Both the position numbers and the translations under genes were made by a program. Shown here piece by piece: positions 45,312-61,904 of a DNA stretch of 64,000 nucleotides. This DNA is from Candidatus Bathyarchaeota archaeon. GTDB lineage: Archaea > Thermoproteota > Bathyarchaeia > Bathyarchaeales > Bathyarchaeaceae. The notes below the pieces were generated by a model. That model worked only from the letters and a program-made list of their open reading frames with translations, made no database searches and was not told the DNA's origin. Location: the NCBI GenBank assembly GCA_004376295.1, contig SOJZ01000005.1, positions 110,554-174,553 of the forward strand. The letters run 5' to 3'. The first letter of the stretch is position 1; each line of letters opens with the position of its first letter.

Positions 45312-45386
45312 CACAACAATTTTATTTCGAGTCAATCCGTGATTTCAACGAATAGGGCCCGTAGCCCAGATCGGATTAAGGCGCCG

Positions 45387-45411
45387 AGCTGTCTCACGGA
45401 ACAGTGCGTAA
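45387..45411 (+). other. tRNA intron 1 (25 nt, non-canonical position 29/30) with a textbook bulge-helix-bulge (BHB) motif
   Basis: The central 4-bp helix pairs 45381-45384 (GCGC) with 45406-45409 (GCGT). 3-nt bulges lie at 45385-45387 and 45410-45412. The inner 5-bp helix pairs 45388-45392 with 45401-45405. Both predicted junctions fall after the second bulge nucleotide. Confidence 0.75.
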
Positions 45412-45419
45412 GCCTCCGG

Positions 45420-45431
45420 ACAATGGAAGAA
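45420..45431 (+). other. tRNA intron 2 (12 nt, canonical position 37/38) with a relaxed BHB
   Basis: Loop bases CTCC (45414-45417) pair with GAAG (45426-45429) at 3 of 4 positions. Bulges are GGA (45418-45420) and AAA (45430-45432). The exact junction is ambiguous by one A. Confidence 0.6.
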
Positions 45432-45509
45432 AGCCGGAGATCCGGGGTTCAAATCCCCGCGGGCCCGCCAACCACAAGGTCCGAATACTATCACATCTGC
45501 GTCCCTTAC

Positions 45510-46002: not shown

Positions 46003-46197
46003 GTGATTCACATGCCGAAATCGAAGGCGGATCTAAAAAACACGCTCATATCTACCAGGGTTACGCCCGATGTTAAAGGCATGGTGCTGAAAGAGGCTCT
46101 AGCAGATGGCTTAACCATTTCAGAGTGGCTTAGATTTATGATCATCAGGGAGATCGCGAGAAGAAACTCAGCGTCAAAAGCGTCAGGAGCTCCATAA
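46003..46197 (+). CDS. ribbon-helix-helix (CopG/Arc-like) DNA-binding protein
   Basis: TLISTRVTPDVKGMVLKEALADGLTISEWLRFMIIREI fits a beta-strand plus two helices. The stop is 3 nt before the next gene. Confidence 0.6.
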   Translation: MIHMPKSKADLKNTLISTRVTPDVKGMVLKEALADGLTISEWLRFMIIREIARRNSASKASGAP

Positions 46198-46200
46198 GAG

Positions 46201-47106
46201 GTGTTCAGGTTGAAGTCATTGAAGAGTGGCGTTTTTGTGAAACACGGGGAGCTCCGCAAGAGAGTGCTTCAACGATGGTTTGATAAGGTTGGTTTGAAGT
46301 GCTCCGCGTTCAGAGCCCTAAGCAACCCTCTTCCAGGCTTGTTTGTAGAGATGCCTGAGTTTATACAAGACATGATCGACGTGATCCTAAGCAACGAAAA
46401 ACACCTGTTCACTCGTGGCGATCTTGGTAGTGGGAAGACAACGCACATGCTTCTTTTCAAGCGTGAGTTTGGCGAGTTGGAGGACAACCTTGGACATGGG
46501 TTTGTTACCGGATACATTGCGAAAACGGGTCTGCATAGACGGCAGATCGCACGCGAGATTGCGGACGCTCTTGGCGTAAAATACTGCATCTCTTGGAACA
46601 GCAACAGAGTGTTAAATGCTATTGAAGATTTCATTAGGAGAAGCTATCCTAGGTATAGGACGGTGTTGTTCTTTGAGGATGTCGCCGAGAACACCGCCGC
46701 AGCCCTAGGGGAAGTCAAGTATCTAGGCGACTTGGAGAAGGACGAAAGGCTCTGTACGCTTATCATGAGCGGGACGCCAGAATACTGGAGCGCGCTTGAA
46801 GCCGTCATTCCCCTCCTAACAAGTCGCTGTGAAGTGGTCGAGGTTCCTTCCTTCAGCCTTAGGCACTCGAGGAAGTTTGTTTGCAACCGACTATCCTATT
46901 TTAGCAAGAATCCTAAAGCGGATGATCGGGACATCTACCCCTTCACAAAAGAGACAATTAGAGTCCTACATGAGGCCTCGGAGGGAAACCCCCGCAAGTT
47001 GCGCGGCTATTGCCGTAGGTGCGAAAGCGTTGCGGCTGAGAGGTATAGATTGAAGAGGGGTGAGATCGTGGATGAAGAGATCGCAAGGATGGTGACTTCG
47101 GTTTGA
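46201..47106 (+). CDS. ExeA-like AAA+ ATPase
   Basis: Walker A GDLGSGKT, Walker B VLFFEDV, sensor region MSGTPEYW, and a GNPRKL arginine-finger-like motif as in the ExeA/ORC-type AAA_22 group. Confidence 0.75.
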   Translation: MFRLKSLKSGVFVKHGELRKRVLQRWFDKVGLKCSAFRALSNPLPGLFVEMPEFIQDMIDVILSNEKHLFTRGDLGSGKTTHMLLFKREFGELEDNLGHGFVTGYIAKTGLHRRQIAREIADALGVKYCISWNSNRVLNAIEDFIRRSYPRYRTVLFFEDVAENTAAALGEVKYLGDLEKDERLCTLIMSGTPEYWSALEAVIPLLTSRCEVVEVPSFSLRHSRKFVCNRLSYFSKNPKADDRDIYPFTKETIRVLHEASEGNPRKLRGYCRRCESVAAERYRLKRGEIVDEEIARMVTSV

Positions 47107-48044
47107 GTGTCTTGAGCAAATATAAGAAGGTAAGGAAAAAACTTAGGAAAACTCTGAAGAAGCTGGAGAAGCGCGCGCCTAAAGTACCTGTTTCGAGTGT
47201 TTTAAGTAAGTATAAGAAGACAGAGCAAGGTCTGAAGAAGCTTGTGAGCGCGGTCAAAGCGCCGACTCTTGGGGTGTTGAGCAAATATAAGAAAGTGAGG
47301 AAAGAATTTAAAGAGAAGCCCGAAGCGCCGGTTTCGCTTCTTGTGCCGACTGGTATCCCGGGACTCGACAAGGTGATCGGTGGAGGTTTTCCAGAGAAGA
47401 GTGTGATTATATTTGCTGGATCCGTGGGTACCGGGAAGACCATTCTCTCAGCCCGTTACATCTACGAGGGGGCAACGAGGTTCGGTGAGAAGGGGCTTTA
47501 TGTGTGCCTCTCGGAGACGAAGGAAAAGTTCCTGAGGAACATGAGAAGGTTTGGATGGAACTTTGAAAGATTGGAAAAGACGGGGAAGGTCTCGGTCCTC
47601 GGTTTGGCGACGGCCAGAGAGGTCGAGTTACAGAGCAACCTGAACGTCATCATGAGGGAAATCAACGAGCAGAAACCTCAAAGGGTGGTCATAGACCCGC
47701 TCACAGCGATGACCAACGCGATGGAGACGAGGGTAGACGCGCGCTTCCTAACGCATGTTCTCTACAAGTTCCTCGAGAACGCCAACTGCACGGCGATCCT
47801 CACCGCCGAGATCCCGATGGGGTCCGATTTCATAGGTGCAGGCGTGGAGGAGTTCATCGCAGACGGGGTGTTTGTGTTAAAACGAGCTGAAAATGCGGGT
47901 AGGATGGTGAGAAAGCTGGAAATAGTAAAGCTGAGGGGGGCGGAAATCGAAGAGCCCAGACATCTATTCACGCTGTTTGGGGGACCTCAGATAATCTGCA
48001 AGAGAGATGAAGCTATTGAAAAGCTTAACGAATTTCTTGAGTGA
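47103..48044 (+). CDS. single-domain KaiC/RecA-superfamily ATPase with an N-terminal basic triple repeat
   Basis: TGIPGLDKVIGGGFPEKSVIIFAGSVGTGKTILSARYIYEG (KaiC-like Walker A region), VVIDPLTAM (Walker B), and LEIVKLRGAE. The N-terminal 78 aa carry three VLSKYKK repeats. A TTGA start/stop overlap joins it to the upstream gene. Confidence 0.85.
   Translation: MSVLSKYKKVRKKLRKTLKKLEKRAPKVPVSSVLSKYKKTEQGLKKLVSAVKAPTLGVLSKYKKVRKEFKEKPEAPVSLLVPTGIPGLDKVIGGGFPEKSVIIFAGSVGTGKTILSARYIYEGATRFGEKGLYVCLSETKEKFLRNMRRFGWNFERLEKTGKVSVLGLATAREVELQSNLNVIMREINEQKPQRVVIDPLTAMTNAMETRVDARFLTHVLYKFLENANCTAILTAEIPMGSDFIGAGVEEFIADGVFVLKRAENAGRMVRKLEIVKLRGAEIEEPRHLFTLFGGPQIICKRDEAIEKLNEFLE
47106..47336 (+). repeat. 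three tandem ~25-30 codon basic repeats
   Basis: SVLSKYKKVRKKLRKTLKKLEKRAPKVPVS / SVLSKYKKTEQGLKKLVSAVKAPTLG / VLSKYKKVRKEFKEKPEAPVS. The repeats are also visible at the DNA level (agcaaatataagaag). Confidence 0.8.
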
Positions 48045-48098: not shown

Positions 48099-48731
48099 TT
48101 GAGTGAAGGAAGAGTAAAATCGATATTAGATCGCCCGCACCTGCTCTTTATAGTTATAGGAGTCACCACCATTTTGTTGATCCCTTTGATGAGCGCGTTT
48201 GAGAGCGTGTTAACATGGCTTGTCATTCGGTCAGGTCTGTATGTTTTCATCAAGGAAGCGATCCTGCCAATACAAGTAAGGATGGTGTCAGTCGCGCTTA
48301 GCGCGCTAGGCTTCGATGTTGATGTTCTCGCAAATTCTGTCGTTGTGCTAGAAAGGGGTGGGCACTCGGCAGGAGCAGGTATATTGTGGAACTGTGTTGG
48401 ATGGCAGACCTTTTTCCTCCTTCTGATAACCCTCGCCTTCGGGATTTCAGGTTCCTATACCATGAAAAGCAAGATGCTCTGCATCGCCCTGAGCTTTGAA
48501 GCCGCGCTATCTATTAGCTTCCTGCGGATTATACTCACTGCTCTAATCAATTTCTATCTGGGACACTGGCAAGCCGTGTTCTTTCACGATTATCTGGGGA
48601 TTGTGTTCGTGCTGGTCTTGGTTTTTGCCTTTTGGATCTTCTGCTTCAAGTTCATACTAGTGTCCAGACCCGAGGCTTCGCAGGGTTTGCAAGACCGAAG
48701 AGAATTGCATAGTTCAGAACGGGTGGGGTAA
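48099..48731 (+). CDS. exosortase/archaeosortase-family-like membrane protein (short form)
   Basis: 210 aa, polytopic. A candidate Cys-Arg-His triad sits in the family-typical contexts and order: GILWNCVGWQTFFLLL (family C-S-G region), SISFLRIILTAL (N-x-x-R-I-like) and VFFHDYLGIVF (H-x-x-x-G). The preceding loop LSALGFDVDVLANSVVVLE resembles the family's G-x-V-x-x-x-G-N-x-I region. Confidence 0.6.
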   Translation: MSEGRVKSILDRPHLLFIVIGVTTILLIPLMSAFESVLTWLVIRSGLYVFIKEAILPIQVRMVSVALSALGFDVDVLANSVVVLERGGHSAGAGILWNCVGWQTFFLLLITLAFGISGSYTMKSKMLCIALSFEAALSISFLRIILTALINFYLGHWQAVFFHDYLGIVFVLVLVFAFWIFCFKFILVSRPEASQGLQDRRELHSSERVG

Positions 48732-48736
48732 ACGGG

Positions 48737-49543
48737 GTGAACAGACACTTATTTGGGGGCGTCGTGGCGGTAGGTCTGGCGTCCATCATCCTCTGTGCGT
48801 TCATACTATCATTCAGCGTCCCATCTTTAGCAGAACGAACAGCGTCTGATACTATCTTTCACTTCACATCCAACGCTTATGAAGGCACTATGCTCTCGGG
48901 CACCTATGCTTCTCCTGGCGGCGATGACTATCATATGGACGACTTGATAAGTGCACCTGAAGGAACAGCGGTCATAAAGAATTTTGCTGTTGGCGATCAT
49001 CTACATTTCTGGACTGACGACTACGATTATAGCGGTTCTTTCGTAGACATACCCGATGCGGATGCTGAGTCATGGGTTGTCAAATTCACTACAGGCGCGA
49101 AAGCTGCGAATTTAGATGTAGTCATTAGAATCACACTTGCCGACGGAAGCCCACATTCACCCGCATTAGAGGTGTCACAGACCATCGCCACTTCGAAAAA
49201 TTCGCTCATCACCGTGACTTTTTCATACCCCACATATTTTTTTACAGGCGACTGGCAGACTGACGAGGATCTTGGAAGAGGCGGGGTGCAAAAGTTGCTG
49301 TATGAAGACACCACTATGCACAGAATCCAAGTTGATTTTGAGGGTTTTACAGGTACAACGACAATAAAATTTGGGCTAGGAAATGAAGGTAGTTTGACAA
49401 CTGGAATCGTTATACCAGAAAACTTGTTGGAATTCTTGTTTCTTGCCCCCTTCATTCCCATAACCGCCAAGGCTTTTGTACGACGGCTGAAAAGAGAGAA
49501 GCTGTTGGCAACCCATGAGGGGGAAAGGAGGGGGAAACAATAA
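48737..49543 (+). CDS. secreted protein with a tripartite C-terminal sorting-signal-like tail (candidate archaeosortase substrate)
   Basis: N-terminal signal/anchor MNRHLFGGVVAVGLASIILCAFILSFSVPSLA. The C-terminus has a short motif IVIPEN, then the hydrophobic LLEFLFLAPFIPITAKAF, then the basic VRRLKREK. The start lies 5 nt after the sortase-like gene. Confidence 0.6.
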   Translation: MNRHLFGGVVAVGLASIILCAFILSFSVPSLAERTASDTIFHFTSNAYEGTMLSGTYASPGGDDYHMDDLISAPEGTAVIKNFAVGDHLHFWTDDYDYSGSFVDIPDADAESWVVKFTTGAKAANLDVVIRITLADGSPHSPALEVSQTIATSKNSLITVTFSYPTYFFTGDWQTDEDLGRGGVQKLLYEDTTMHRIQVDFEGFTGTTTIKFGLGNEGSLTTGIVIPENLLEFLFLAPFIPITAKAFVRRLKREKLLATHEGERRGKQ

Positions 49544-49560: not shown

Positions 49561-52290
49561 GTGTTCGCGGCAATAAGCCTAGTGGCTGGTTTCCTCTTCG
49601 CCCTCTACGCCACAAAATACTACCTCTCCGTGTTCCTAGCCCTCCGAAACCACAACAACATGGTCAGCAACCACAACCACCTCTACAACAACCACAACAA
49701 CCACAACAACAACACAGCCTTCCCCAACCATCTCAACCACCTCAACAACGGAGTTAACAACCACCGCAACAACTGGAAGAACAACAACGGACCCTTCGTC
49801 TCGATCCACCTGCCCATATACAACGAGTCCAATGTGGTCGAGCGGCTGATGAAGGCATGCACCTCCTTCGACTATAGCAACTACGAAGTGATCGTCATTG
49901 ACGACTCCACGGACGAAACGACCGACATCCTAAGGAGCTGGAGCGACCACCCGAGGGTCAAGCTAATCCACAGAACAACAAGGCAGGGATACAAGCCCGG
50001 AGCCCTCTCGGTGGCTCTACAACACATGAACCCAAGGGCGCAATACGTACTCATCTTCGACGCCGACTTCATTCCACCACCCTACCTCTTGAACTATTTC
50101 GTACCATACTTCGCACAGCCGGTGGTAGCAAGAGAGGACATCATATCCGCGATCCTAGACCTGGACAGTCGATTCGTCGACAGAGAAATAAGCGTCGGAA
50201 AATACTTGGAAAAGAAAGAGAAACTCGTGAAACTCGTTGTCGAGGCGCCCGAGAGACCGGTCGACGAGAGAAATCTGGTGACAACCATCGTTCACCAAGA
50301 CCAACTGTTCACGCGGGAAGAGATAGACACCGAACAATACCTGACAAGGAGAGAGACACTCGTCACTAGGCTGCAGAAAAGAAGGCGAAAGGAGCCTTGG
50401 ACAAGAGAGTTTATTGTCTCCCAAATCCTCGGTCTCGACAAATCTTACGCCGAAAACAAGATTTCCTACGAAAAATATCAAAGGAAGAGACAAGAGCTAA
50501 CCGAACGCCTCAAGGAGATGGAAAGGGGATTACCGACCGAGATTAGCATAATGTCCTCTATCTTTGAACTCGACAGGCTCTTCACGGAAGACAAAGTCGG
50601 TGGCGAGAAATACCTAGAGAAGAGAGTCAGACTGGTAGAAAGGCTTGAAGTCGTCAGGACTCCAAGAGAAGGCGGGGAAGCTAGGGCAGAGGAGAAGACG
50701 CTGATCGAACTAGGTGCGAAACCAACAGAGAAGGATCGAAAGACCTTGTCGGAGATTCTCGAGCTGGACAGCCTTTTCGCCACAGACAAGATCGTCATTA
50801 AGGAATACTTAGAGAGGCGACGAAGACTTGTCGGAGAACTCGAAGTCATCAGGAAACGCGATGAAAAAAGAGGGCCCCCAACCGAAAAGGCTCTACGGGT
50901 CGATCTAGGGCTAGATGAGAAACGGGCGCAGATGGAAAGGAGCACATCGTATCCCATCTTCGAGTTTGATAGGCTGTTTGCGGAGGATAAAGTCAGCGGC
51001 GAGGAATACTTAGAGAAGAGGGAGAAACTGGTAGAGACAGTCTTTCAAAAGACGCGCTTAAGATACGATCTGAAAAGAATAATCCAGCTCTATAGAAACC
51101 ACAACACCGCTGCTGTTCAGGGCTACCAGCATCACTTCTTGAACAGCAACGAAAACTGGCTGACTAGAGGGATCAGAGCTGAGTACAGCGCTAGCTACAT
51201 GGTTGAGAGGTCAGCCCAAGAAGTTTTAGGTCTAATGAAGATGATCGCCGGAAGCGTGTTCATGATAAGGGCGGATCTACTACTTGAATACGGGTGGTCG
51301 ACCAGCATCACAGAGGACTGGGAGCTGACCCTCAGGCTCTACCGCGACGGCTATAAGGTTCTATACACGCCACTTAACGCGGTTCCGGCAGAATGCCCAG
51401 CCACCTTCAAGAGGCTCGTGCAGCAACGGATGCGCTGGGCCGAAGGACACACCTACAACGTCCGAAAATACTTCCGCGACATAATGAAATCCTCTGAGAT
51501 GAAACTCAGGGAGAAACTAGAGTTCCTTTACTACTCGCCCTATTACCTCCAGTCCTTCATGTTTATACTAGGCACCATCTGCTGGTTCATATCAGAGTCG
51601 CTTCATAGGCATCTATGGCACCCATACATGGGATGGGCCCTCCTGCTGTATAATTTCCTAGCCATCCCGGCCATGGGGATCACGGGGCTCTTCTTGGAGG
51701 GAACGCCAAAGAAGGACTTCACCGGGGTGTTGTCCACCATAGTGATGACATACCTTCTGGCCCCGTTTCAGGCCTACGCCTCCATTAAGGGTTTACTTGA
51801 GAAGAAAGAGGGTCCCTGGATTAGAACATTCAAGACCGGAAAAGTCACAGAACGCATGATGCTAACGGAACTCAGAATCAGGAAACGGCTGTTAGCCCTA
51901 TTCCCAAGGAAATGGTTGACATCCCTGAACGGAGCCCGCATGCGAATCAGGCGTACCATCTTCGGACCGCCCGAACGCGCCGAAATAAGACTGGCCGACG
52001 AAAGGAGCATCCTAACAGCCATCCTTGAGCTAGACAGATCGTTCGCCGAAGATCAGATAACAACCGATGAGTACCTGTCAGAGAGACAGAACTTCGTGGC
52101 AGACCTGATGGTAGCGAAAAAGCGTAAAGAGAAGAGGCTCAAGGCTGAAAAACCTGCAGAGGAAGATCGAACAAAATCCGCCGTCTTCGAACTAGACAAC
52201 TTCTTCACCGAGGGTCAGATCGGTGTCGAGGAATACTTGAGGAAAAGGACGGAACTTGTGGAAAGGCTGCAAGGAGAAGGTGAAGCGTGA
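49561..52290 (+). CDS. processive GT2 beta-glycan synthase (cellulose/chitin/mannan-synthase-like) with a ~330-aa repeat insertion and C-terminal repeats
   Basis: D (VIDDSTD), DxD (IFDADF), TED (SITEDWE) and QxxRW (QQRMRW) are all present. There is an N-terminal TM and about four C-terminal TMs. The insertion between DxD and TED spans aa ~186-515 (nt 50116-51105). Confidence 0.85.
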   Translation: MFAAISLVAGFLFALYATKYYLSVFLALRNHNNMVSNHNHLYNNHNNHNNNTAFPNHLNHLNNGVNNHRNNWKNNNGPFVSIHLPIYNESNVVERLMKACTSFDYSNYEVIVIDDSTDETTDILRSWSDHPRVKLIHRTTRQGYKPGALSVALQHMNPRAQYVLIFDADFIPPPYLLNYFVPYFAQPVVAREDIISAILDLDSRFVDREISVGKYLEKKEKLVKLVVEAPERPVDERNLVTTIVHQDQLFTREEIDTEQYLTRRETLVTRLQKRRRKEPWTREFIVSQILGLDKSYAENKISYEKYQRKRQELTERLKEMERGLPTEISIMSSIFELDRLFTEDKVGGEKYLEKRVRLVERLEVVRTPREGGEARAEEKTLIELGAKPTEKDRKTLSEILELDSLFATDKIVIKEYLERRRRLVGELEVIRKRDEKRGPPTEKALRVDLGLDEKRAQMERSTSYPIFEFDRLFAEDKVSGEEYLEKREKLVETVFQKTRLRYDLKRIIQLYRNHNTAAVQGYQHHFLNSNENWLTRGIRAEYSASYMVERSAQEVLGLMKMIAGSVFMIRADLLLEYGWSTSITEDWELTLRLYRDGYKVLYTPLNAVPAECPATFKRLVQQRMRWAEGHTYNVRKYFRDIMKSSEMKLREKLEFLYYSPYYLQSFMFILGTICWFISESLHRHLWHPYMGWALLLYNFLAIPAMGITGLFLEGTPKKDFTGVLSTIVMTYLLAPFQAYASIKGLLEKKEGPWIRTFKTGKVTERMMLTELRIRKRLLALFPRKWLTSLNGARMRIRRTIFGPPERAEIRLADERSILTAILELDRSFAEDQITTDEYLSERQNFVADLMVAKKRKEKRLKAEKPAEEDRTKSAVFELDNFFTEGQIGVEEYLRKRTELVERLQGEGEA
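49645..49791 (+). repeat. Asn/His-rich low-complexity tract encoded by imperfect AAC/CAC repeats
   Basis: NHNNMVSNHNHLYNNHNNHNNNTAFPNHLNHLNNGVNNHRNNWKNNN. The DNA is dominated by aaccacaac units. Confidence 0.85.
50140..51042 (+). repeat. six SHOCT-like ~30-aa protein repeats inside the GT2 catalytic domain
   Basis: ILDLDSRFVDREISVGKYLEKKEKLVKL; IVHQDQLFTREEIDTEQYLTRRETLVTRL; ILGLDKSYAENKISYEKYQRKRQELTERL; IFELDRLFTEDKVGGEKYLEKRVRLVERL; ILELDSLFATDKIVIKEYLERRRRLVGEL; IFEFDRLFAEDKVSGEEYLEKREKLVETV. Confidence 0.8.
52003..52269 (+). repeat. two further SHOCT-like repeats at the GT2 C-terminus
   Basis: ILELDRSFAEDQITTDEYLSERQNFVADL and VFELDNFFTEGQIGVEEYLRKRTELVERL. Confidence 0.8.
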
Positions 52291-53024
52291 AGGGCAATTT
52301 CAAGGTTAACGTCGCTGTTGTTCTTCTAACCTATATGGAGGCTGAAAACGTAGAGACACTCATCCCAGCCATTAAAGGCGTCGTTTCAAGGGTGACCGAA
52401 AACTTTGACGTGATCGTGGTGGACGACGACTCTCCAGACGGGACGGCGAGAGCAGCCGAGGCTCTTGGATCTCACGTCCTAGTTCGAAGAAATGAAAGGG
52501 GATTGGGATCCGCCATAAGAGCCGGAATTAGGGAGGCGCTAAGCCGAGGAGCCGATATCATAATTACCATGGATGCCGATTGGCAGCACAACCCGCAGCA
52601 CATACCTCGACTCATAAACGCTTGCCTGGAAGGGGCGGACATAGCCTTAGGGAGCAGGAGGATCCCCGGCGGTCAGCTAGAGATGGGCCTCTTTAGAGGG
52701 CTCATATCCTTAGGGGCGAAAAAACTGTCGAACATCGCGTTGAGATCGGGAGTTAAGGACCCAACTTCCGGCTTCAGAGCATACAATAGAAGGGCCGCTG
52801 AAGAGGTTTTGGCGTTAAGGACCAACGGATACGTGTTCCAGGTCGATTCCCTACGCCTCGCGAGAAAGCGTGGGCTGAGAATCGTTGAGGCACCAATATC
52901 GTTTAACAGCCGAAGACATGGGGTCTCCAAGCTCGGACTCAGCGAGGTGATGGAGTACAGCGGCCTCCTCTTCACGCTACTGACGCGGAGGTTACGCACT
53001 GCAGTAGACTCGTCTGGAGGTTAA
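52287..53024 (+). CDS. GT2 polyprenyl/dolichyl-phosphate sugar synthase (DPM1/Ppm1-like)
   Basis: VAVVLLTYMEAEN, VIVVDDDSPDGT and ITMDADWQH. Length is 245 aa with no TM. A GTGA overlap joins it to the upstream gene. Confidence 0.8.
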   Translation: MKGNFKVNVAVVLLTYMEAENVETLIPAIKGVVSRVTENFDVIVVDDDSPDGTARAAEALGSHVLVRRNERGLGSAIRAGIREALSRGADIIITMDADWQHNPQHIPRLINACLEGADIALGSRRIPGGQLEMGLFRGLISLGAKKLSNIALRSGVKDPTSGFRAYNRRAAEEVLALRTNGYVFQVDSLRLARKRGLRIVEAPISFNSRRHGVSKLGLSEVMEYSGLLFTLLTRRLRTAVDSSGG

Positions 53025-53027
53025 GAA

Positions 53028-54518
53028 TTGTTAGAAGGGGATAACAGATTCTGGCTCCGGCCTTGCATAATTATGGGCATTGCTTTGACGGTTCGTCTAG
53101 CTTTCTTATTTATGGTTGTGCCCATTGATTTTGCGTGGGATAGCTACCATCGCTGGCAGATAGCCTATTACACGCTTCACACCGGTTTAAGGCATGGGCG
53201 GATGTGGGATCTTTTCGGCATGGAGTATTTTTGGGGTATCCTACCGGTATTAACAGAAGCGTTTCTACTTTGGTTATCTAAAAGTAGCTCACTCATAGCA
53301 TTTAGAATTTTTAACGCAACGATTGGAAGCGCATCCATACTCCTTCTCTACCGCATCTGTAAAAAATATTTCAACGAGAGAGCCGCCTTCGCGTTGTCAT
53401 TGTTGGCAGCGATATGTCCCCCAATAGTCATTTGGGATACAATAGCTCTTGATGGATCATTAGGCGTATTCTTTCTCCTCCTATCTCTTTGTTTCTATGA
53501 AAGAAGGCAATACCTTTGCGGGGTGACGTTAGGGTTAGCATCCATGTGTAGGGTTGAGTTCTATTTTGTGACATTAGGGTTATGTCTATGCTATCTGGTG
53601 TTTGAGCGATCAGGGACAAAGTTTGTTCCCGCAATCAGCGGGTGGCTAACTGTCATGGGTCCTTACCTCTGGTTTCTCCAAACAAGAACTGGCGACTGGC
53701 TTTATCAAGTTAGGTGGAACTACCTGTGTAGCATGGGGGCGTGGGGGCTTTCTCCGGCTTGGTTCTCGGAATCTTTACCTTGGAGGGTGATGTGGGGGAT
53801 AATCCTCTTTGCAACGATACTTTCCTTAGTTCACGTTTACAGAAAGAAGCCCCCCAATTATATCATCTGGGCTCTCTTCCTGGGTTATACCATGTTCCAA
53901 GGAGTGGTCTACACGGTCTCGGTGACTCGCTATGTGGCGCTGCACGATATGTTTTCAATAATGCGTGGGTTGCAGAACATTCGATTCGTCCCAAACTACA
54001 TGTTCGCCATCATCTTGGCTCCCGTGCTGATTAATAAGCTAAGGAGCGCTCATTTCTCTAACCCTTTAGGGAGAGTGAAGATAAAGAGAGGACAAGTGGT
54101 CTCAGCAGTCATTGTAGCATTCTTATTCGCGGCGTGGTTATACGCAGACGCGCCAGTTTGTAACTCCATGTCAAGGGATTTGAAGTCAACCTGGTGGGAC
54201 GCCATCGACAGGTCGGGGTTACTTAGCCACTATAGGGGAGGAACGATAATAATCGATCCCGGATGGCCCCAGGTGACCTATTACCTCATACAAAGAGGAA
54301 TATCGCACGAGCACATTCTCGGCTCCTTATACTGTCCAGAGGGGGAAAGAAACCAGTCTCTGGCTTGGTTCAGAAAGGAAAACGCGACCTGGTATATACA
54401 TATTCTTGGTGTTTCGAGTCCCTTTCCTGAACTTGACACGAGCGGGGATCATCCGCCGTTCTACATATTCTATGCTGAACACGCAATGCGAGTTTATAAA
54501 ATATCAGGCGAAAGTTGA
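53028..54518 (+). CDS. GT-C-fold membrane glycosyltransferase (GT39/GT83 ArnT/PMT-like)
   Basis: About 11 TM. The N-terminal pattern RLAFLFMVVPIDFAWDSYHRW is followed by RIFNATIGSASILLLYRICKKYFNERAAFALSLLAAICPP. This is typical of polyprenyl-phosphate-sugar-dependent GT-C enzymes. Confidence 0.6.
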   Translation: MLEGDNRFWLRPCIIMGIALTVRLAFLFMVVPIDFAWDSYHRWQIAYYTLHTGLRHGRMWDLFGMEYFWGILPVLTEAFLLWLSKSSSLIAFRIFNATIGSASILLLYRICKKYFNERAAFALSLLAAICPPIVIWDTIALDGSLGVFFLLLSLCFYERRQYLCGVTLGLASMCRVEFYFVTLGLCLCYLVFERSGTKFVPAISGWLTVMGPYLWFLQTRTGDWLYQVRWNYLCSMGAWGLSPAWFSESLPWRVMWGIILFATILSLVHVYRKKPPNYIIWALFLGYTMFQGVVYTVSVTRYVALHDMFSIMRGLQNIRFVPNYMFAIILAPVLINKLRSAHFSNPLGRVKIKRGQVVSAVIVAFLFAAWLYADAPVCNSMSRDLKSTWWDAIDRSGLLSHYRGGTIIIDPGWPQVTYYLIQRGISHEHILGSLYCPEGERNQSLAWFRKENATWYIHILGVSSPFPELDTSGDHPPFYIFYAEHAMRVYKISGES

Positions 54519-57166
54519 GTGAAAAGATGGAAATACAACGATTAGGAAGCTTAATGGTAATAGCCGTTTACATTGCGATCCTAGTGTATTTCATCGGTTT
54601 TTTACTAAATGCCTGGACGTATTTTGCTTATCCTCCAGGAAACGACACAATTCCCCATCTATATAAAACAAAATTCATTACTCAATATTTGCCTCAAATT
54701 CGATGGAATCATCACTGGGCCTCTGGTATGCCTCTATTCAGGTGGTACCCCATCCTATTCTTCTTATTGCAAGCTTCAGCTACGGTGATAACCGCCCTTC
54801 CCGTTGAACTTGTACTGGTCATAACTCTTTCAATAAGTTACTGGTTAATCGGCCTAGGAATCTATTTGTTTACTTCTGAAATCGTGAATGATCACAGCAT
54901 CTCCATAATTGCGCCGACAGTCTTAATTTCAACTCCGATTCTCTGGAACTTATATGTGGAAGGAGGATTGTGTACCAGAATTCCGGCTGCGGGCTTCTTT
55001 GCACTTTCGCTTGCAGCAACAATCAGATATGTTAATCGACCTTCCAGAATGAGGCTGCTTTCTAGTATATTATGTATTTCTACTTCAATGTTACTTCATC
55101 CAGCCTACGGAGTGCCTGCGTTAATATCGTGCACTCTACTGACTCTAGTTATGGCGAAAGACTGGAGGCGGAAGATAACACTATCCTTAAAGATAATGAT
55201 TCCTACTCTTTTCCTAATCTGTTGGTTCTACCTTCCATTCATTCAACCTCTACCTCCTCACCGCTTATCTGAGCCATTCTCTCTTTCTGTTACAATAGCG
55301 CATATCTTCATGTTACCAACGAGGGGCGCGGATGTAACATTTAATCCCATATTCATCCCTTTGACTCTCGCACTCGTCATGATAAGTCTCTTTTACGACA
55401 GGAAAACTCTAACAGAAAACTCACTTTTAAAATGGGTTTTAGCATTTTTGTTTCTTTTTCCATTTCTAGCTCAGATCTTTGATGATTCTATTATTATGAT
55501 AACTCTTGCCTTCTACTTACTACCGTTTGACTGTTTATTGCTCAAAAGGCTGTATGATATCTTGGCACGTCACAGAAGGTTTCTTCCAAACATTATAACA
55601 GTTTGTCTAATATCTCTGATATTGATTGCTCAAGTCTGGGTAACAGGAGTAGATGTAATTGAAAAGATCAAAAACCCTGTGACAAAAGTTCCTGATGCGT
55701 TGAGTGAGATCTCAGATAGATTAACAATTCCGAAGGAAAATTTTATGTATCGCGTTGCAGTTGCTGGAAGCTACAGTGATTTGGGCGGGTGGTTTAACTA
55801 TAAATATGATGTCCCACAAACAAGGGACTATTATGGTCAAGGAATCCTAAATCCGCAGTGGAATGGTCTTTTCAGTATAATTTACTACACAACGGGTAAT
55901 TACAATGAAACTAATTTCTTCCTTGACTATTGGGGAGTTAAATGGATTCTTGCTAGAAGTGATATGAATATCCAAGGTACGTCTATACCCCATTACCAGA
56001 AATTCCTAGCTCGACAACAATATTACCAACTAACTGGACAGGCGCGGGCGATCTATGATCCAGATGAAGTCATCTACGAGTTTACATACAGAAATGCCAC
56101 TCCAATATTTTACGTTTCTAACGTCCCCACATTACTTATTCTCGGAGATGAAATAGGTTATAATGACGTATTTCTCGCATTTGCTTATTCAGATTATGAC
56201 AGCCGCTGTATCATCCCAATTAAGGGTTATGAATACATTGACGACTACACGTTAAGTCAGCTAAGTCAATTCGATGCGATAATCCTTAGAGGATACAAAT
56301 ATCATGATCGAGCTGAGGCATGGAGCCTACTAGACAACTACGTGAAGAATGGAGGTGGCTTAATAATCGAGACTGGTTACTCTCCTGATGGGAACGCGTC
56401 CTTTATACCCCCTCCATGCCCGGTTGAAATGACGAGAAAAACTGACTTTGGCAAGGAGTGGCATTTCACCTACGTTGACAGCCCAGTAACGGATGGAATC
56501 AATTTCACATCATTTTCTCCCGCGGTCTATGGCGACCACGCTTGGGGCGTTTCAGCCTCATACAATGAAAGCGTTCGCCTATGGGCTAGGACTATACTCT
56601 GGAACAAAGGACATCCACTCGTCGTTATTGGCGATTACGGAAAAGGCCGCGTCGTCTGGTCCGGTCTGAACCTGCCCTACCACATTATCAACTACAAAAA
56701 CTATTGGGAGTCGCTGTTCCTATCCAAGATAATTGACTGGGCTGCACAGGCACCTAAGAAGAGGACTACAACCGTCGACTACACGGTGAACCGCCCTAAC
56801 CCTGAAAAGATCATAGTGACCGTCAGCAATGAAGCGAATGGCATTCTGTTTAAGGAGTGCCACTTCAAGAATTGGTACGCATATTTAATTGACCATGAAG
56901 GAAAAAGACAAAACCTACCTATCTATAAGGCTGGTCCATACTTCATGTATGTGCGCGTGCCAAGTGATATTAAATTACCCATTAAAGTCTTTTTTGAGTA
57001 CGGTTGGGAATGGGAAGAGATATCCGGAGGTATAATTAGCATGATAACCTTCGTAATTTTAGTGATGTACGCTACTGGGCTTCCAGTGGATAAACCAGCT
57101 AAATATTTGGTTAAAAGACTGAAGAAGTCGGCTCAGAAGGTAGGTGGATGGTGGTATGAAGAGTAA
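54515..57166 (+). CDS. large polytopic membrane protein with a C-terminal extracytoplasmic domain (GT-C-like / PTPS_related COG5617-like)
   Basis: 883 aa. The N-terminus PPGNDTIPHLYKTKFITQYLPQIRWNHHWASGMPLFRWYP resembles the PTPS_related membrane family as I recall it. About 13 TM are followed by a ~450-aa soluble part and a terminal TM. Confidence 0.55.
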   Translation: MSEKMEIQRLGSLMVIAVYIAILVYFIGFLLNAWTYFAYPPGNDTIPHLYKTKFITQYLPQIRWNHHWASGMPLFRWYPILFFLLQASATVITALPVELVLVITLSISYWLIGLGIYLFTSEIVNDHSISIIAPTVLISTPILWNLYVEGGLCTRIPAAGFFALSLAATIRYVNRPSRMRLLSSILCISTSMLLHPAYGVPALISCTLLTLVMAKDWRRKITLSLKIMIPTLFLICWFYLPFIQPLPPHRLSEPFSLSVTIAHIFMLPTRGADVTFNPIFIPLTLALVMISLFYDRKTLTENSLLKWVLAFLFLFPFLAQIFDDSIIMITLAFYLLPFDCLLLKRLYDILARHRRFLPNIITVCLISLILIAQVWVTGVDVIEKIKNPVTKVPDALSEISDRLTIPKENFMYRVAVAGSYSDLGGWFNYKYDVPQTRDYYGQGILNPQWNGLFSIIYYTTGNYNETNFFLDYWGVKWILARSDMNIQGTSIPHYQKFLARQQYYQLTGQARAIYDPDEVIYEFTYRNATPIFYVSNVPTLLILGDEIGYNDVFLAFAYSDYDSRCIIPIKGYEYIDDYTLSQLSQFDAIILRGYKYHDRAEAWSLLDNYVKNGGGLIIETGYSPDGNASFIPPPCPVEMTRKTDFGKEWHFTYVDSPVTDGINFTSFSPAVYGDHAWGVSASYNESVRLWARTILWNKGHPLVVIGDYGKGRVVWSGLNLPYHIINYKNYWESLFLSKIIDWAAQAPKKRTTTVDYTVNRPNPEKIIVTVSNEANGILFKECHFKNWYAYLIDHEGKRQNLPIYKAGPYFMYVRVPSDIKLPIKVFFEYGWEWEEISGGIISMITFVILVMYATGLPVDKPAKYLVKRLKKSAQKVGGWWYEE

Positions 57167-57911
57167 AGAGTCGGATATTATCATGTCAAGTGCCGGTGCT
57201 ATGGAAGGATGCAAGATGGAGTTGAAGCAGATTTACAACAAATGGTACTTTGAACGTAAATACAGGTATTCAAAGAAGAAGAACGCCATTCAACATCACT
57301 ATTTTAGCATGCTTGTATGGGCGAACAGGCACTCACCTTGGAATCTATTAAATGGATGTGGGAAAAAGGCATTAGACATTGGCTGTGCTTATGGCTTCAT
57401 CACTGATCTACTTAGTAGGTTGGGATATGAAGCCATAGGAATAGATGTCTCAAAGTATGCTGTCATGAGAGGGGGAGAATTTGGCATGAAGGATTTACTT
57501 GTATCTGACGTTTCACATCCGCCGTTCAAAGCCATGTCCTTCGATCTGATAACATGCTTTGAAGTACTTGAGCATTTACCAGATCCTACTTCCGCATTAA
57601 CTGGCATTTACGAGCTTCTTGATTCACAAGGAATTTTCCTCGCCATAACACCTAGCGTAGGCAGTGTGGCTACTGCCATCGGCGTATTATCCCGAGAAAA
57701 CCCCTCCATCCACCCATCCGTTAAGCCTCCAAACGAGTGGATTGAAACCTTATCAAACCTCCAATTTTCGAGGATTAAGCTTGAGCCTTTCCTATTGCTA
57801 CCGATGCCTCCAACGTTACTTAACAGGTACTTCATGGTTAAACGTACTTCACGTTTTGCAAGCCATGTTAGAATTCTCGCCATAAAGCCTTCAGCGGAGG
57901 AGAACAGGTAA
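57144..57911 (+). CDS. class I SAM-dependent methyltransferase
   Basis: Motif I ALDIGCAYGFITDLLSRLGYEAIGIDVS, and motif II FDLITCFEVLEHL. The start is uncertain, with in-frame ATGs at 57156 and later. Confidence 0.8.
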   Translation: MDGGMKSKESDIIMSSAGAMEGCKMELKQIYNKWYFERKYRYSKKKNAIQHHYFSMLVWANRHSPWNLLNGCGKKALDIGCAYGFITDLLSRLGYEAIGIDVSKYAVMRGGEFGMKDLLVSDVSHPPFKAMSFDLITCFEVLEHLPDPTSALTGIYELLDSQGIFLAITPSVGSVATAIGVLSRENPSIHPSVKPPNEWIETLSNLQFSRIKLEPFLLLPMPPTLLNRYFMVKRTSRFASHVRILAIKPSAEENR

Positions 57912-59068
57912 TGCAAAGTGGGGTTCTGTTGGACGCCCTTCTAAGCAATGTTAGGAATTTACCGTTTAACCTCGAATTCGCTGTAACGAATAAATGCAAT
58001 CTGAGGTGCGTGCAATGCAATGTTTGGCGATATTATAACGAGGACCCTGAAAAATCTCGAGAAGAGTTAACGGTGGAAGAGATCGAAAATATATTTTCAT
58101 CATATAACGGCTTTAGCATGATCGGCATCACCGGTGGTGAGCCGTTTTTAAGAGAAGACTTGCCCGAAATAGTCAGCGTCATAAGCCGAACCCAGAGAAA
58201 GTTAAGGATGCTGTTTATAACAACTAATGGGCAACTTCCTGAAACGACTGAAAGAAAGCTCCGAGAAATTTTAGAGAATAGAGATGCCAATGGACGCAGA
58301 TTTAGATTAGTGCAGCTAGTTAGTTTAGATGGTCCTAGAAACCTGCATAATTACATCCGCAGCAATGAGAAGGCATATGATAGAGTCATCAACACCATTA
58401 AATTGCTGTCCGAGTTAAGGTCTGTTTATGATATTTTCGATCTAGGAACAGTGACTGTTTGCTCTCCATTTAACATCGATAAATTTGATGAAGTGATTAG
58501 CGAGATTGCAAAATTAAAGAATGAATATGATCTGGAGCCTAGCTTCTGCGTGTGGTTCAAGGGCCGATTATACAAGAACATAAAAAGCCAAGAAGACGTT
58601 GAAAAGTTTAGGAGAAAACTAATTGATTTAATCCCGGAAATTAAGGGAGTTGTTAAGAAAAGGAAGTCCTTACTCTCGACGGGCAGATGCGTTTTTTATG
58701 ACCTGCTTAATTCTTGGCTGGAAAACCCAACAAAACAGGTTGTCCCATGCGGCGCCGCTAAGGTTAGATACGTCCTTGATACCTATGGAAACGTCTATCC
58801 ATGCACCATCTTCAACGCCGCCATAGGAAATCTGCGTCATTACAACTACAGCCTCATAGAGCTCTTTTCTAGCAACAGAAGAAGAAAGGTTAGGCTTCTC
58901 GTTGAAAGAGAAGGTTGTCCGATATGCTGCAATACATGCGAAACGATCCCGGCTATGATGGCGTATCCCCTTCACACGCTCATCAAATGGATAAACTCGA
59001 GCGCTTTGGGATTTAATAGGCCTCACGATTCACGGAAAGAATGTAAGACGCAAAGGTGTTTCCTATGA
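57911..59068 (+). CDS. radical SAM enzyme with a C-terminal SPASM/twitch-like Cys cluster
   Basis: CNLRCVQCNVW (CxxxCxxC), GGEPFL, and C-terminal CGAAKVRYVLDTYGNVYPC ... CPICCNTCE. A TAATG overlap joins it to the methyltransferase. Confidence 0.85.
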   Translation: MQSGVLLDALLSNVRNLPFNLEFAVTNKCNLRCVQCNVWRYYNEDPEKSREELTVEEIENIFSSYNGFSMIGITGGEPFLREDLPEIVSVISRTQRKLRMLFITTNGQLPETTERKLREILENRDANGRRFRLVQLVSLDGPRNLHNYIRSNEKAYDRVINTIKLLSELRSVYDIFDLGTVTVCSPFNIDKFDEVISEIAKLKNEYDLEPSFCVWFKGRLYKNIKSQEDVEKFRRKLIDLIPEIKGVVKKRKSLLSTGRCVFYDLLNSWLENPTKQVVPCGAAKVRYVLDTYGNVYPCTIFNAAIGNLRHYNYSLIELFSSNRRRKVRLLVEREGCPICCNTCETIPAMMAYPLHTLIKWINSSALGFNRPHDSRKECKTQRCFL

Positions 59069-60356: not shown

Positions 60357-61904
60357 TTGAAACCGAGGGTTAAGTATGAGCAGATGGTGGGAGAAGTGAG
60401 AAGGATCTTGTTGCTTGCAGTCGTTCTTTTCGTGTTGATACTGTCGTTCTTCTCTTATCAGCATTTTTTCGTTAAGCCGCCAAGTCCCTATCCACCCGGC
60501 ATGAGTGACGTAGACAAGGCAGCTATGAAAGCCGATGGCATTCAAGCCAACGAACTGAGAGAGGTGACGGACGCCCTAAAGAGGAATGACAGCGGAAAGG
60601 TGATCTACGGCGACCGCTTCATGCGTTGGACCGTTCTGGCTTACACGTTGTGGAGGGTAGATCAGGGCGACTTGACGATCATAAAGGCCATGGAAGACCT
60701 GATGATCTCTTATTATAACCATGCGTGGTACCCCTTTGTGAAGAATAGGCCACCGATGCCGTTCGAAGGTCTCATCCAATATTTTCGTGGCGATGGCACT
60801 TGGAAAGATTACTGGTGCGACTACAAGCCTGTCTACTCGGCTGCTTTCGTGCTCGAGTACTACTTGTTATCGTGCTTCGATCGGGAATGGGGTATCCAGA
60901 ACTATCCCATTCTAAAGAACGTCACGGACTCCCTGCTTAAGATGTGGCTACCTGGGCGCCATCAACCTTGCGCCTACGTAGACAGCGACGGCACAACGTT
61001 CCAGGTTATGAACATCACCTGCAGCGTTGACAGCGCTTTCGTTTACGCCGCCTTAATCTCCTCGTCTCAAATATCTAAAGTATTGATGAACGATACCCAT
61101 AGCTACGAGAACTATACCAGATATGCGAAGGACCTGATCACGCACTTCTACAACCAGACTTGGGATTGGTTTCCAACCAGCATTTTCGGTGCGAATCCGG
61201 AAGAAGAATACGGGACCGCGCTGCAAGTCGGTACGACCCTCCCGTTCATTGACGCGGACGATAAGATCGATCTATGCGAACGATATCTGGTCAACAACCT
61301 TCGCGTAGGGACGCCATGGCTACTGAAGTGGAAGAAAAGCGACACGTCTCCCAGCAGCCGCTCTGTCACGGCAGCCGCAGGGCTTGCGCTCAAGTATCCA
61401 CGAATCTCTTATGACATTTTGAACGCGTATGCCGATGCGGCGTTATCGAACGATCCCTGGTTCCTAACCGAAACCGATGAGTACGAAGGCGGAGATCCTA
61501 TTTGGGTTAGCGGTAAGTACCTGCAAACCTATGTGTTTCTGAAAAATCGAATGTTGACTGGCAGAATCCCCTTCTCACCAAAGCTGATGGGAGGGAGCCT
61601 CAGGTTTGAAACATCATTTCCGTCAGACCTACCCGGACTGCACCTAGTCAATGGCACCTTCCCGACGCTTCTAGGAATCATGGAAGTGAAAGCAAGCGTG
61701 ACAGAAAATGCCCTTAAATATGTTATCGCTGGAGCGCCACATCAGAACGTCACAGTCAAATTCCACGTTTCATTCGAACCAGATGTCTCATGCGACGCGA
61801 GCATGTGGGGTTACACTGACGATCGAAATATAAACGTCACAGTCGTCTGGTTCATACCGGACGGCATGGTTGAAATAGAGATCGAAAAACCATCCACACT
61901 CTAG
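60357..61904 (+). CDS. secreted/membrane-anchored helical-repeat protein, unknown function
   Basis: N-terminal anchor RRILLLAVVLFVLILSFFSY. Several N-x-S/T sequons and recurrent aromatic-rich helical segments are present. A more likely start is the ATG at 60384. Confidence 0.55.
   Translation: MKPRVKYEQMVGEVRRILLLAVVLFVLILSFFSYQHFFVKPPSPYPPGMSDVDKAAMKADGIQANELREVTDALKRNDSGKVIYGDRFMRWTVLAYTLWRVDQGDLTIIKAMEDLMISYYNHAWYPFVKNRPPMPFEGLIQYFRGDGTWKDYWCDYKPVYSAAFVLEYYLLSCFDREWGIQNYPILKNVTDSLLKMWLPGRHQPCAYVDSDGTTFQVMNITCSVDSAFVYAALISSSQISKVLMNDTHSYENYTRYAKDLITHFYNQTWDWFPTSIFGANPEEEYGTALQVGTTLPFIDADDKIDLCERYLVNNLRVGTPWLLKWKKSDTSPSSRSVTAAAGLALKYPRISYDILNAYADAALSNDPWFLTETDEYEGGDPIWVSGKYLQTYVFLKNRMLTGRIPFSPKLMGGSLRFETSFPSDLPGLHLVNGTFPTLLGIMEVKASVTENALKYVIAGAPHQNVTVKFHVSFEPDVSCDASMWGYTDDRNINVTVVWFIPDGMVEIEIEKPSTL

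Follow-up and report, generated by a model that had tools for sequence, protein, structure and literature searches.

A stretch of 64,000 nucleotides from a Candidatus Bathyarchaeota archaeon (contig SOJZ01000005.1 of assembly GCA_004376295.1, positions 110,554 to 174,553; hereafter the window, whose own numbering is used throughout) carries two adjacent genes that probably encode an enzyme of the exosortase/archaeosortase type and its dedicated substrate. A glycosyltransferase family 2 (GT2) synthase gene directly downstream probably completes a module of three parts, which is conserved across Bathyarchaeia, Chloroflexota, Patescibacteria and Dormibacterota. The first gene (48099-48731, plus strand as are all three, TTG start with a GGAGG 14 nucleotides 5' of it) encodes a membrane protein of 210 residues that comprises only the catalytic core of the exosortase/archaeosortase family. 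After a spacing of 5 nucleotides the second gene (48737-49543, GTG start) encodes the candidate substrate, a protein of 268 residues with an N-terminal signal peptide or anchor, an ectodomain of ~190 residues and a C-terminal tripartite signal. Its hydrophobic segments are N-terminal (residues ~5-27, followed by PSLA/ERT) and C-terminal. The third member (49561-52290) encodes a processive GT2 synthase of 909 residues that is PgaC/CelA-like (103 bits to PgaC) and matches the Pfam families Glycos_transf_2, Glyco_tranf_2_3 and Glyco_trans_2_3. A preliminary description of this DNA had singled out the first two genes as a sortase and its dedicated substrate, and their open reading frames (ORFs), their coordinates, the 5-nucleotide gap and the quoted sequence strings are present as it gave them. 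The pair stands, while the place of the GT2 gene in the module had been overlooked, as had the fact that in most lineages the synthase is the bearer of the signal. The finding is thus broader than first described, since the GT2 belongs to the module and the system is not specific to archaea.

Members of the exosortase/archaeosortase superfamily share a Cys, an Arg and a His that follow one another in this order and hardly ever vary (10.1101/2023.06.07.544157). Membership of the 210-residue protein, proposed earlier from its local sequence contexts, was confirmed by the NCBIfam signature TIGR04178, which matched residues 95-182 with 26.5 bits (cutoff 23, E=5.8e-6). All relatives pass the same model with 31.8-39 bits, two of them (P0064 and P0086) also pass the Pfam model Exosortase_EpsH, and public annotation names the proteins of this clade "exosortase/archaeosortase family protein". 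The candidate triad consists of Cys99 (48393-48395, in LWNCVGWQ), Arg143 (48525-48527, in SFLRIIL) and His163 (48585-48587, in FFHDYLG). These three residues are invariant in seven close homologs (47-86% identity), where W97, N98, G101, W102 and Q103 as well as F162, D164 and Y165 are also kept. In an alignment of 50 sequences with ~25% identity, R143 and H163 are found in 50/50 and C99 in 49/50, the exception being a gap, and invariance at this distance is the pattern expected of a catalytic site. A profile-profile comparison using hhalign with long (263-361 residues) ArtC-like and thaumarchaeosortase-like proteins (99.7%, E=3.5e-26) placed C99, R143 and H163 on the invariant Cys, Arg and His of the long proteins, so that the triad picked out earlier is conserved. 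As the match is confined to ~150 C-terminal residues of the long proteins, the clade represents the catalytic core and lacks their N-terminal ~170-190 residues. We conclude that the 210-residue protein is a homolog of the exosortase/archaeosortase catalytic core with conserved Cys, Arg and His.

Hydropathy analysis revealed five hydrophobic segments in this protein. Its AlphaFold2 model (predicted local distance difference test, pLDDT, of 90.3) shows a helical membrane protein with long helices at residues 13-45, 47-69, 102-115, 122-154 and 156-186 and a small three-stranded sheet just N-terminal of the Cys. A Foldseek search of the model against the PDB returned no homolog, the best hit being the unrelated DgkA (E=0.32). 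None of the named Art or Xrt subfamily models in NCBIfam reached its cutoff with the 210-residue protein: the ArtA model TIGR04125 (cutoff 75) gave no match at E<=1, and no match was obtained with the models for ArtB, ArtC, ArtF and thaumarchaeosortase. The best subfamily scores among the relatives were 26 bits for ArtF (cutoff 150), 24 for ArtC (cutoff 100), 23 for XrtG (cutoff 103) and 23 for XrtX (cutoff 170).

The most conserved region of the partner is its C-terminus, in agreement with the earlier expectation that the tail would be kept in orthologs. Identity among ten partner orthologs drops to 33-45% over the ectodomain, whereas the ~47 residues at the C-terminal end are almost fixed. 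The sorting signal as a whole (49406-49540) is composed of the motif IVIPEN (residues 224-229; 49406-49423), the hydrophobic, Pro-containing helix LLEFLFLAPFIPITAKAF (residues 230-247; 49424-49477), the basic cluster VRRLKREK (residues 248-255; 49478-49501) and a conserved, clade-specific extension, LLATHEGERRGKQ (residues 256-268; 49502-49540). This confirms the previously described layout of motif, helix and basic cluster, with the correction that 13 residues trail the cluster, not about 14. Invariant in all ten orthologs are T222, G223, V225, P227, E228, L230, L231, F233, F235, A237, P238, I240 and P241, followed by K245, A246, R249 and R253; A258 and E263 belong to the almost-fixed set. 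In terms of elements, IPEN, LLxFLFLAPFIP, the basic cluster and THEGERRGK are near-invariant. The most distant syntenic ortholog (locus L001, where the sortase is 47% identical) has the tail VLPERLLPLLLVAPSIPLIAKK...AHEGERRGKRRF and retains VLPERLL...APSIP...AHEGERRGKR. The 13-residue THEGERRGK extension is restricted to the clade of the window.

The motif abuts the helix without a spacer, an arrangement that is typical of signals such as PEP-CTERM and PGF-CTERM, on which membrane-embedded sorting enzymes act (10.1101/2023.06.07.544157). Neither the partner nor its isolated tail was matched by Pfam or NCBIfam, including all curated CTERM signals, and when the curated CTERM models were run against eight tails at E<=10, none passed its cutoff. 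With PEP_CTERM TIGR02595 (cutoff 16) the window tail gave no match and one tail from Patescibacteria, the candidate phyla radiation (CPR), scored 15.0. The VPE tail had not been catalogued before, and public annotation of the partner reads "hypothetical protein". We conclude that the partner C-terminus is a conserved tripartite signal, in which [IV]-P-E sits on a short Pro-containing helix (LLxLLLLAPxxP) that is followed by a basic cluster. A hidden Markov model (HMM) of the tail built from other genomes was run on all six reading frames of the window (64 kb) and gave a single match, located at 49394 with E=2.5e-11; a whole-protein database search with the partner returned this flavour of tail on this one protein family only. 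A single tail in the window and a single family in the database search are consistent with the dedicated one-to-one pairing that had been suggested.

Related sortases in other phyla are accompanied by a similar signal. An exhaustive profile search yielded 270 representatives of the sortase clade at 50% clustering, and a scan of one genome per GTDB species yielded 289 relatives. They are located in Bathyarchaeia, Chloroflexota (Anaerolineae, Dehalococcoidia), Patescibacteria (Microgenomates groups, Saccharibacteria) and Dormibacterota, with a few more in metagenome-assembled genomes (MAGs) labelled Gammaproteobacteria. Most of the relatives found are bacterial, and the family is therefore not restricted to archaea. 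For 83 loci (82 fetched loci and the window) we scored adjacency by the coordinates of the sortase domain; pairing is accordingly a measure of adjacency at the level of the locus. A tripartite xPE tail was present on an ORF abutting or fused to the sortase domain in 63 of the 83 loci, and six more had a tail nearby; five loci lie at contig edges. As a control, only 3 of 661 opposite-strand ORFs carried an xPE tail. Applied to raw six-frame translations, the tail HMM detected a same-strand tail in 69/83 loci and a single opposite-strand match in total. One sortase and one tail were counted in 51 loci. Aligned on P-E, 84 tails gave the consensus (T/F)-P-G-I-V-V-P-E-x-L-L-(P/G)-L-L-L-L-A-P-(L/F)-(I/L)-P-x-x-x, with about seven positions rich in R/K after it. 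The E in this consensus is set by the rule of the screen itself; P and E are also invariant in two alignments that are free of this rule, that of the ten partner orthologs and one further. We conclude that the signal adjoins, or is fused to, the sortase of this clade in most loci.

Five of the loci from MAGs named "uncultured Gammaproteobacteria" (L027, L055, L061, L074 and L079) contain sortase-tail pairs in which the tail has a CPR/Microgenomates flavour, for example AVVPEKVLLLL...KKFKKKK, which suggests that these bins are mislabelled.

The GT2 synthase connects the window to the other lineages. When tail-bearing neighbours were sampled from all four phyla, eight of ten turned out to be processive GT2 synthases (Glycos_transf_2, Glyco_tranf_2_3 and Glyco_trans_2_3), and the sampled tail-bearing GT2s have a C-terminal extracytoplasmic domain with the tail at its end. 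The 909-residue GT2 of the window is orthologous to these proteins (best score >500 bits, phmmer) and has homologs at E<=1e-4 in 49/82 loci. Furthermore, the components occur as natural fusions. Six proteins have the order sortase, transmembrane segment, ectodomain and tail (P0024, P0040, P0043, P0060, P0066 and P0070, the P0024 cluster being present on several contigs of up to 38 kb), two have the order GT2, ectodomain, tail and sortase (P0086 and P0096), and one consists of ectodomain, tail and sortase (P0064). In a further protein (P0069) the sortase core is fused to a class I SAM methyltransferase. Bathyarchaeia also contain arrays (L006, L010, L016, L034, L042 and L057) that begin with a GT2-ectodomain-tail protein of ~790 residues, continue with one or two sortase-ectodomain-tail fusions of ~430-470 residues and end with a free sortase of ~200-220 residues, so that each tail is followed by a sortase domain of its own. 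Since GT2 orthologs carry the tail and fusions exist in both orders, the window contains the same module divided into three adjacent genes.

Several features of these proteins were noted on the side. The second tail in some of the Bathyarchaeia arrays is a variant (VVPENLTNMIQVSLFFATTS...), and in P0149 the sortase core is fused to DUF2341 and a Laminin_G_3/ConA-like lectin domain. The window GT2 contains an Asn/His-rich stretch of low complexity (residues ~30-75) and at least seven copies of a repeat of ~30 residues, I[LF]ELD.[LF]F.ED.[IV]...EYLE.R..LV..L, five within the GT-A catalytic domain (residues 198-500) and two C-terminal (821-905); in Pfam the repeat gave only a sub-threshold match to GvpG. 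Anaerolineae orthologs of the GT2 have an N-terminal response-regulator receiver instead, with additional RNA_pol_A_CTD repeats in that of L005. The same synthase thus seems to have acquired different regulatory modules.

The ectodomain of the fusion P0024 was modelled with AlphaFold as a confident jelly-roll beta-sandwich. It matched the galactose-binding-like C-terminal domains of CocE/PepX hydrolases, CBM22 and the sugar-binding domain of Fbs1 with E values of 1e-7 to 1e-4. The window ectodomain aligns with those of the fusions over the last strands and the tail only; the jelly-roll is therefore demonstrated for the P0024 model alone, and a similar fold in the window protein is presumed. 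Across the clade, a processive GT2 synthase with a jelly-roll ectodomain is the usual carrier of the signal.

These data suggest a mechanism in which the partner would be exported and its C-terminal helix would retain it in the membrane, the basic cluster lying on the cytoplasmic side. The N- and C-termini of the sortase would likewise be cytoplasmic, as implied by the two orders in which its core is fused. Combined with the helices of the AlphaFold2 model, this topology would bring the sheet and the three residues Cys99, Arg143 and His163 close to the outer leaflet, at the expected level of the VPE motif. The sortase could recognize the motif at the outer face of the membrane, and Cys99 would then attack the peptide bond at or just past it, the helix and the basic remnant being discarded. 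The new C-terminus of the ectodomain, which appears to be of a carbohydrate-binding type, might be passed to an acceptor, which would be a membrane lipid (the case in ArtA) or the product polymer of the GT2, and the ectodomain would thereby be kept at the surface next to the synthase. The cytoplasmic THEGERRGK extension and two ATPases encoded upstream, one KaiC-like and one of the AAA_22 family, would be clade-specific additions, possibly with a regulatory role.

Several points weigh against a cleaving enzyme with a dedicated substrate. C-terminal cleavage in this clade is deduced from sequence, and where the tail is carried by a polytopic synthase, removing one C-terminal helix would "sort" nothing obvious. 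A tail is missing from 14/83 loci, and contig edges explain only some of these. The TIGR04178 score of the window protein is only 3.5 bits over the cutoff, Exosortase_EpsH (PF09721) does not match it, and it has no Pfam match at all. Its fold and active-site geometry are predictions, and the PDB holds no solved exosortase. Finally, when the natural fusion P0024 was modelled with AlphaFold from an alignment of 36 rows, the tail was not placed in the sortase and had a pLDDT <50.

The strongest alternative is that the tail stays uncleaved and acts as a permanent C-terminal anchor or docking helix. In that case the sortase homolog would bind this helix as a subunit of the synthase complex with a structural or chaperone function, and its Cys, Arg and His would serve in binding or in some other chemistry. 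A precedent would be cellulose synthase, where the C-terminal transmembrane helix of BcsB packs against BcsA, and the usual carriers of the tail, either the synthase itself or a jelly-roll ectodomain beside it, resemble BcsA-BcsB. The one-to-one ratio of sortase and tail in 51 loci, repeated in the Bathyarchaeia arrays where each tail is paired with the following sortase domain, is easier to reconcile with a stoichiometric complex than with a catalytic enzyme. The covalent fusions, which exist in both orders, point in the same direction, and the two conserved prolines of the helix (AP..P) could make a packing motif. We nevertheless regard docking as unlikely, since Cys, Arg and His are invariant at ~25% identity, as they would be in a catalytic site, and the conserved charged motif is placed precisely at the interface with the membrane, where cleaved signals have theirs. 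Moreover, experiments support cleavage by a homologous enzyme, ArtA (10.1101/2023.06.07.544157).

That the sortase acts on unlinked proteins or on a non-protein substrate, with the neighbouring tail being an ordinary anchor that resembles a signal by coincidence, is very improbable. The genome was inspected over 64 kb only, and the 14 loci without a nearby tail could be taken in favour of this explanation. However, a specific tail consensus stands beside the sortase in four phyla over a near-zero background, and sortase and tail are united in single polypeptides in the fusions. The database search with the partner, which returned the tail flavour on one protein family only, likewise speaks against it. 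The idea that the ORFs are not real genes, or that Cys, Arg and His are a chance likeness in a generic membrane protein, could draw on the HMM score near its cutoff and on the lack of a Pfam match, and is effectively refuted by orthologs and synteny conserved in independent assemblies, by the 270 family representatives, by the profile-profile E value and by the confident AlphaFold2 model.

Cleavage by a dedicated sortase hence remains our preferred reading, for which ArtA provides the precedent. Its removal of the helix and attachment of a lipid, with cleavage supported by experiment, are described in a preprint that also raises the question of transpeptidation in one step (10.1101/2023.06.07.544157). 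We also considered a bolder version, which we think rather doubtful, in which the module is an ancient cross-domain "synthase-sortase" device. Its thioester intermediate would serve to link the carbohydrate-binding ectodomain, in many cases a part of the GT2 polypeptide, by a covalent bond to the growing polysaccharide or to the ectodomain that comes next, and not to sort a surface protein to a lipid. Were this the case, the product would be a protein-capped or protein-primed glycan or a covalent chain of ectodomains, and the arrays, the mostly one-to-one stoichiometry and the fusions would reflect a single-turnover or daisy-chain chemistry of which this enzyme family offers no described example.

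Among known systems, the XrtG/Firmicu-CTERM system of Firmicutes (TIGR03110, TIGR03111) is closest by architecture. The XrtG locus encodes a Firmicu-CTERM protein, XrtG and two associated glycosyltransferases (PMC12854382), and hence combines a small exosortase (187 model positions), a single adjacent CTERM protein and GT2s. Relatives of the window protein gave sub-cutoff matches to the XrtG model (20-23 bits, cutoff 102.75), while the window protein itself gave none. The window GT2 scored 28.9 bits with the XrtG-associated GT2 model TIGR03111 (cutoff 364) and is closer to PgaC, and neither the Firmicu-CTERM model nor any other CTERM model matched the window tail. In contrast to XrtG, the system described here occurs in other taxa (Bathyarchaeia, Chloroflexota, CPR and Dormibacterota), the signal is usually located on the synthase, and enzyme and substrate can be fused.

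ArtA/PGF-CTERM of Haloferax volcanii belongs to the same superfamily and shares the Cys/Arg/His signature and a tripartite signal whose motif abuts the helix. The motif in the window is VPE/IPEN and not PGF, the pairing is one-to-one and linked by locus, whereas ArtA is one enzyme with many substrates, and the context is a polysaccharide synthase instead of an S-layer. The window protein also differs from the long archaeosortases, whose N-terminal ~170-190 residues it lacks. By signal, the closest system is XrtA/PEP-CTERM, with which the tail has in common a V-P-E start ahead of a hydrophobic helix and a basic cluster. Both have a setting of exopolysaccharide biosynthesis and an ExeA-like AAA ATPase nearby, the latter with a weak match to TIGR03015. 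However, the window protein is not matched by the XrtA model, the third position of the motif is not Pro, and the helix has a characteristic AP..P. The hosts here are archaea or lack an outer membrane, and the enzyme has one linked substrate, not a large dispersed set.

In size, the window protein is comparable to other short family members, XrtH (TIGR04177, 158 model positions), ArtF (TIGR04293, 166) and XrtX (NF046081, 168). The earlier label "minimal" therefore holds in the sense that only the catalytic core is present, while the small size is not exceptional, as short exosortase models already exist (those three and XrtG). Relatives match ArtF and XrtX weakly (26 and 23 bits), far off the cutoffs of ArtF (150), XrtX (170) and XrtH (86), and signals and contexts differ. 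BcsA-BcsB can be compared by analogy only: a processive GT2 is combined with an extracytoplasmic jelly-roll domain of carbohydrate-binding type on a single C-terminal transmembrane helix, and both fused and split versions of the genes occur. No sequence homology to BcsB was detected, and the BcsB anchor has neither a VPE motif nor a sortase-like enzyme. Since the proteins carry the marks of the superfamily and fall outside every named subfamily, we assign them to an unnamed cross-domain subfamily with its own signal.

Small exosortases and locus-linked single substrates are already established, and in this respect the finding is narrower than first described. We found neither the usual location of the tail on the synthase itself nor enzyme-substrate fusions described in the papers and curated models searched. 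The literature on Bathyarchaeota or Patescibacteria yielded nothing relevant to this clade, and no envelope study of the module in Bathyarchaeia, CPR, Anaerolineae or Dormibacterota, all of them lineages that are little characterized, was found in the searched papers. Few protein-sorting enzymes are as poorly understood as the exosortases and archaeosortases, and to our knowledge the acceptor is known for ArtA only. With a core of ~200 residues, one linked substrate with a sharp signal, single-chain fusions and a fixed GT2 partner, the clade offers a simple test system and makes the long-suspected link between exosortases and exopolysaccharides directly testable. The tail and sortase profiles can be converted to curated models that would replace "hypothetical protein" and generic family names.

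Upstream of the sortase gene the window encodes, in the same direction, an ExeA-like AAA_22 ATPase (46201-47106, Pfam AAA_22) and a KaiC-like ATPase (47103-48044, Pfam KaiC/ATPase with 200.7 bits), whose start overlaps the AAA_22 gene by 4 nucleotides. The AAA_22 protein, a clade-specific accessory, matches the ATPase of the XrtA/PEP-CTERM system (TIGR03015) weakly with 49.7 bits (cutoff 324.5). The cassette of AAA_22 ATPase, KaiC-like ATPase, sortase, partner and large GT2 is syntenic in L001 and L002, the close relatives of the window, and the two ATPases are conserved only there.

Downstream of the module lie co-directional glycan genes (52287-57911) that recur in some sortase loci. They encode a GT2 resembling dolichyl-/polyprenyl-phosphate sugar synthases (52287-53024), a PMT_2-like membrane protein (53028-54518), a PTPS_related (PF10131) multi-transmembrane protein of 883 residues with a single C-terminal anchor (54515-57166) and a class I methyltransferase (57144-57911). 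Homologs of the PMT_2-like protein are present in six other sortase loci, those of the PTPS_related protein in six and those of the methyltransferase in 19; the PTPS_related homologs include those of L003 (432 bits) and L017 (287 bits). The PTPS_related family presumably also accompanies XrtG loci. Proteins of ~700 residues encoded 3' of the sortase in bacterial loci were tested as PTPS_related or XrtG-type partners and had no Pfam or NCBIfam matches; phmmer connected the 883-residue protein with different ORFs in the six loci. The 883-residue protein had also been flagged by a relaxed regular expression as a second substrate in the window, and was rejected, as its tail (WEWEEISGG...) has neither VPE nor AP..P and is not matched by the tail HMM. 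Within the glycan cluster, a radical SAM/SPASM protein (57911-59068) has no homolog in any other sortase locus. A protein of 515 residues (60357-61904) has an N-terminal anchor and no family assignment; its homologs (667-748 bits) are encoded directly 3' of the sortase in L004 (2894-4447) and after the GT2 in L002 (9354-10946), and it may be another component of the system.

The GC content of the cluster region (46-54 kb) is 0.48-0.50, compared to 0.41-0.45 in the flanks. About 0.5 kb 5' of the cluster lies an intron-containing tRNA of 113 nucleotides (45355-45467, plus strand), which was detected by Rfam (38.6 bits, gathering threshold 29) and missed by ARAGORN, and a NikA-like ribbon-helix-helix ORF is located at 46003-46197. 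In L002 a D5_N primase gene is found 5' of the same cassette. The cluster may represent a genomic island or have a link to a mobile element.

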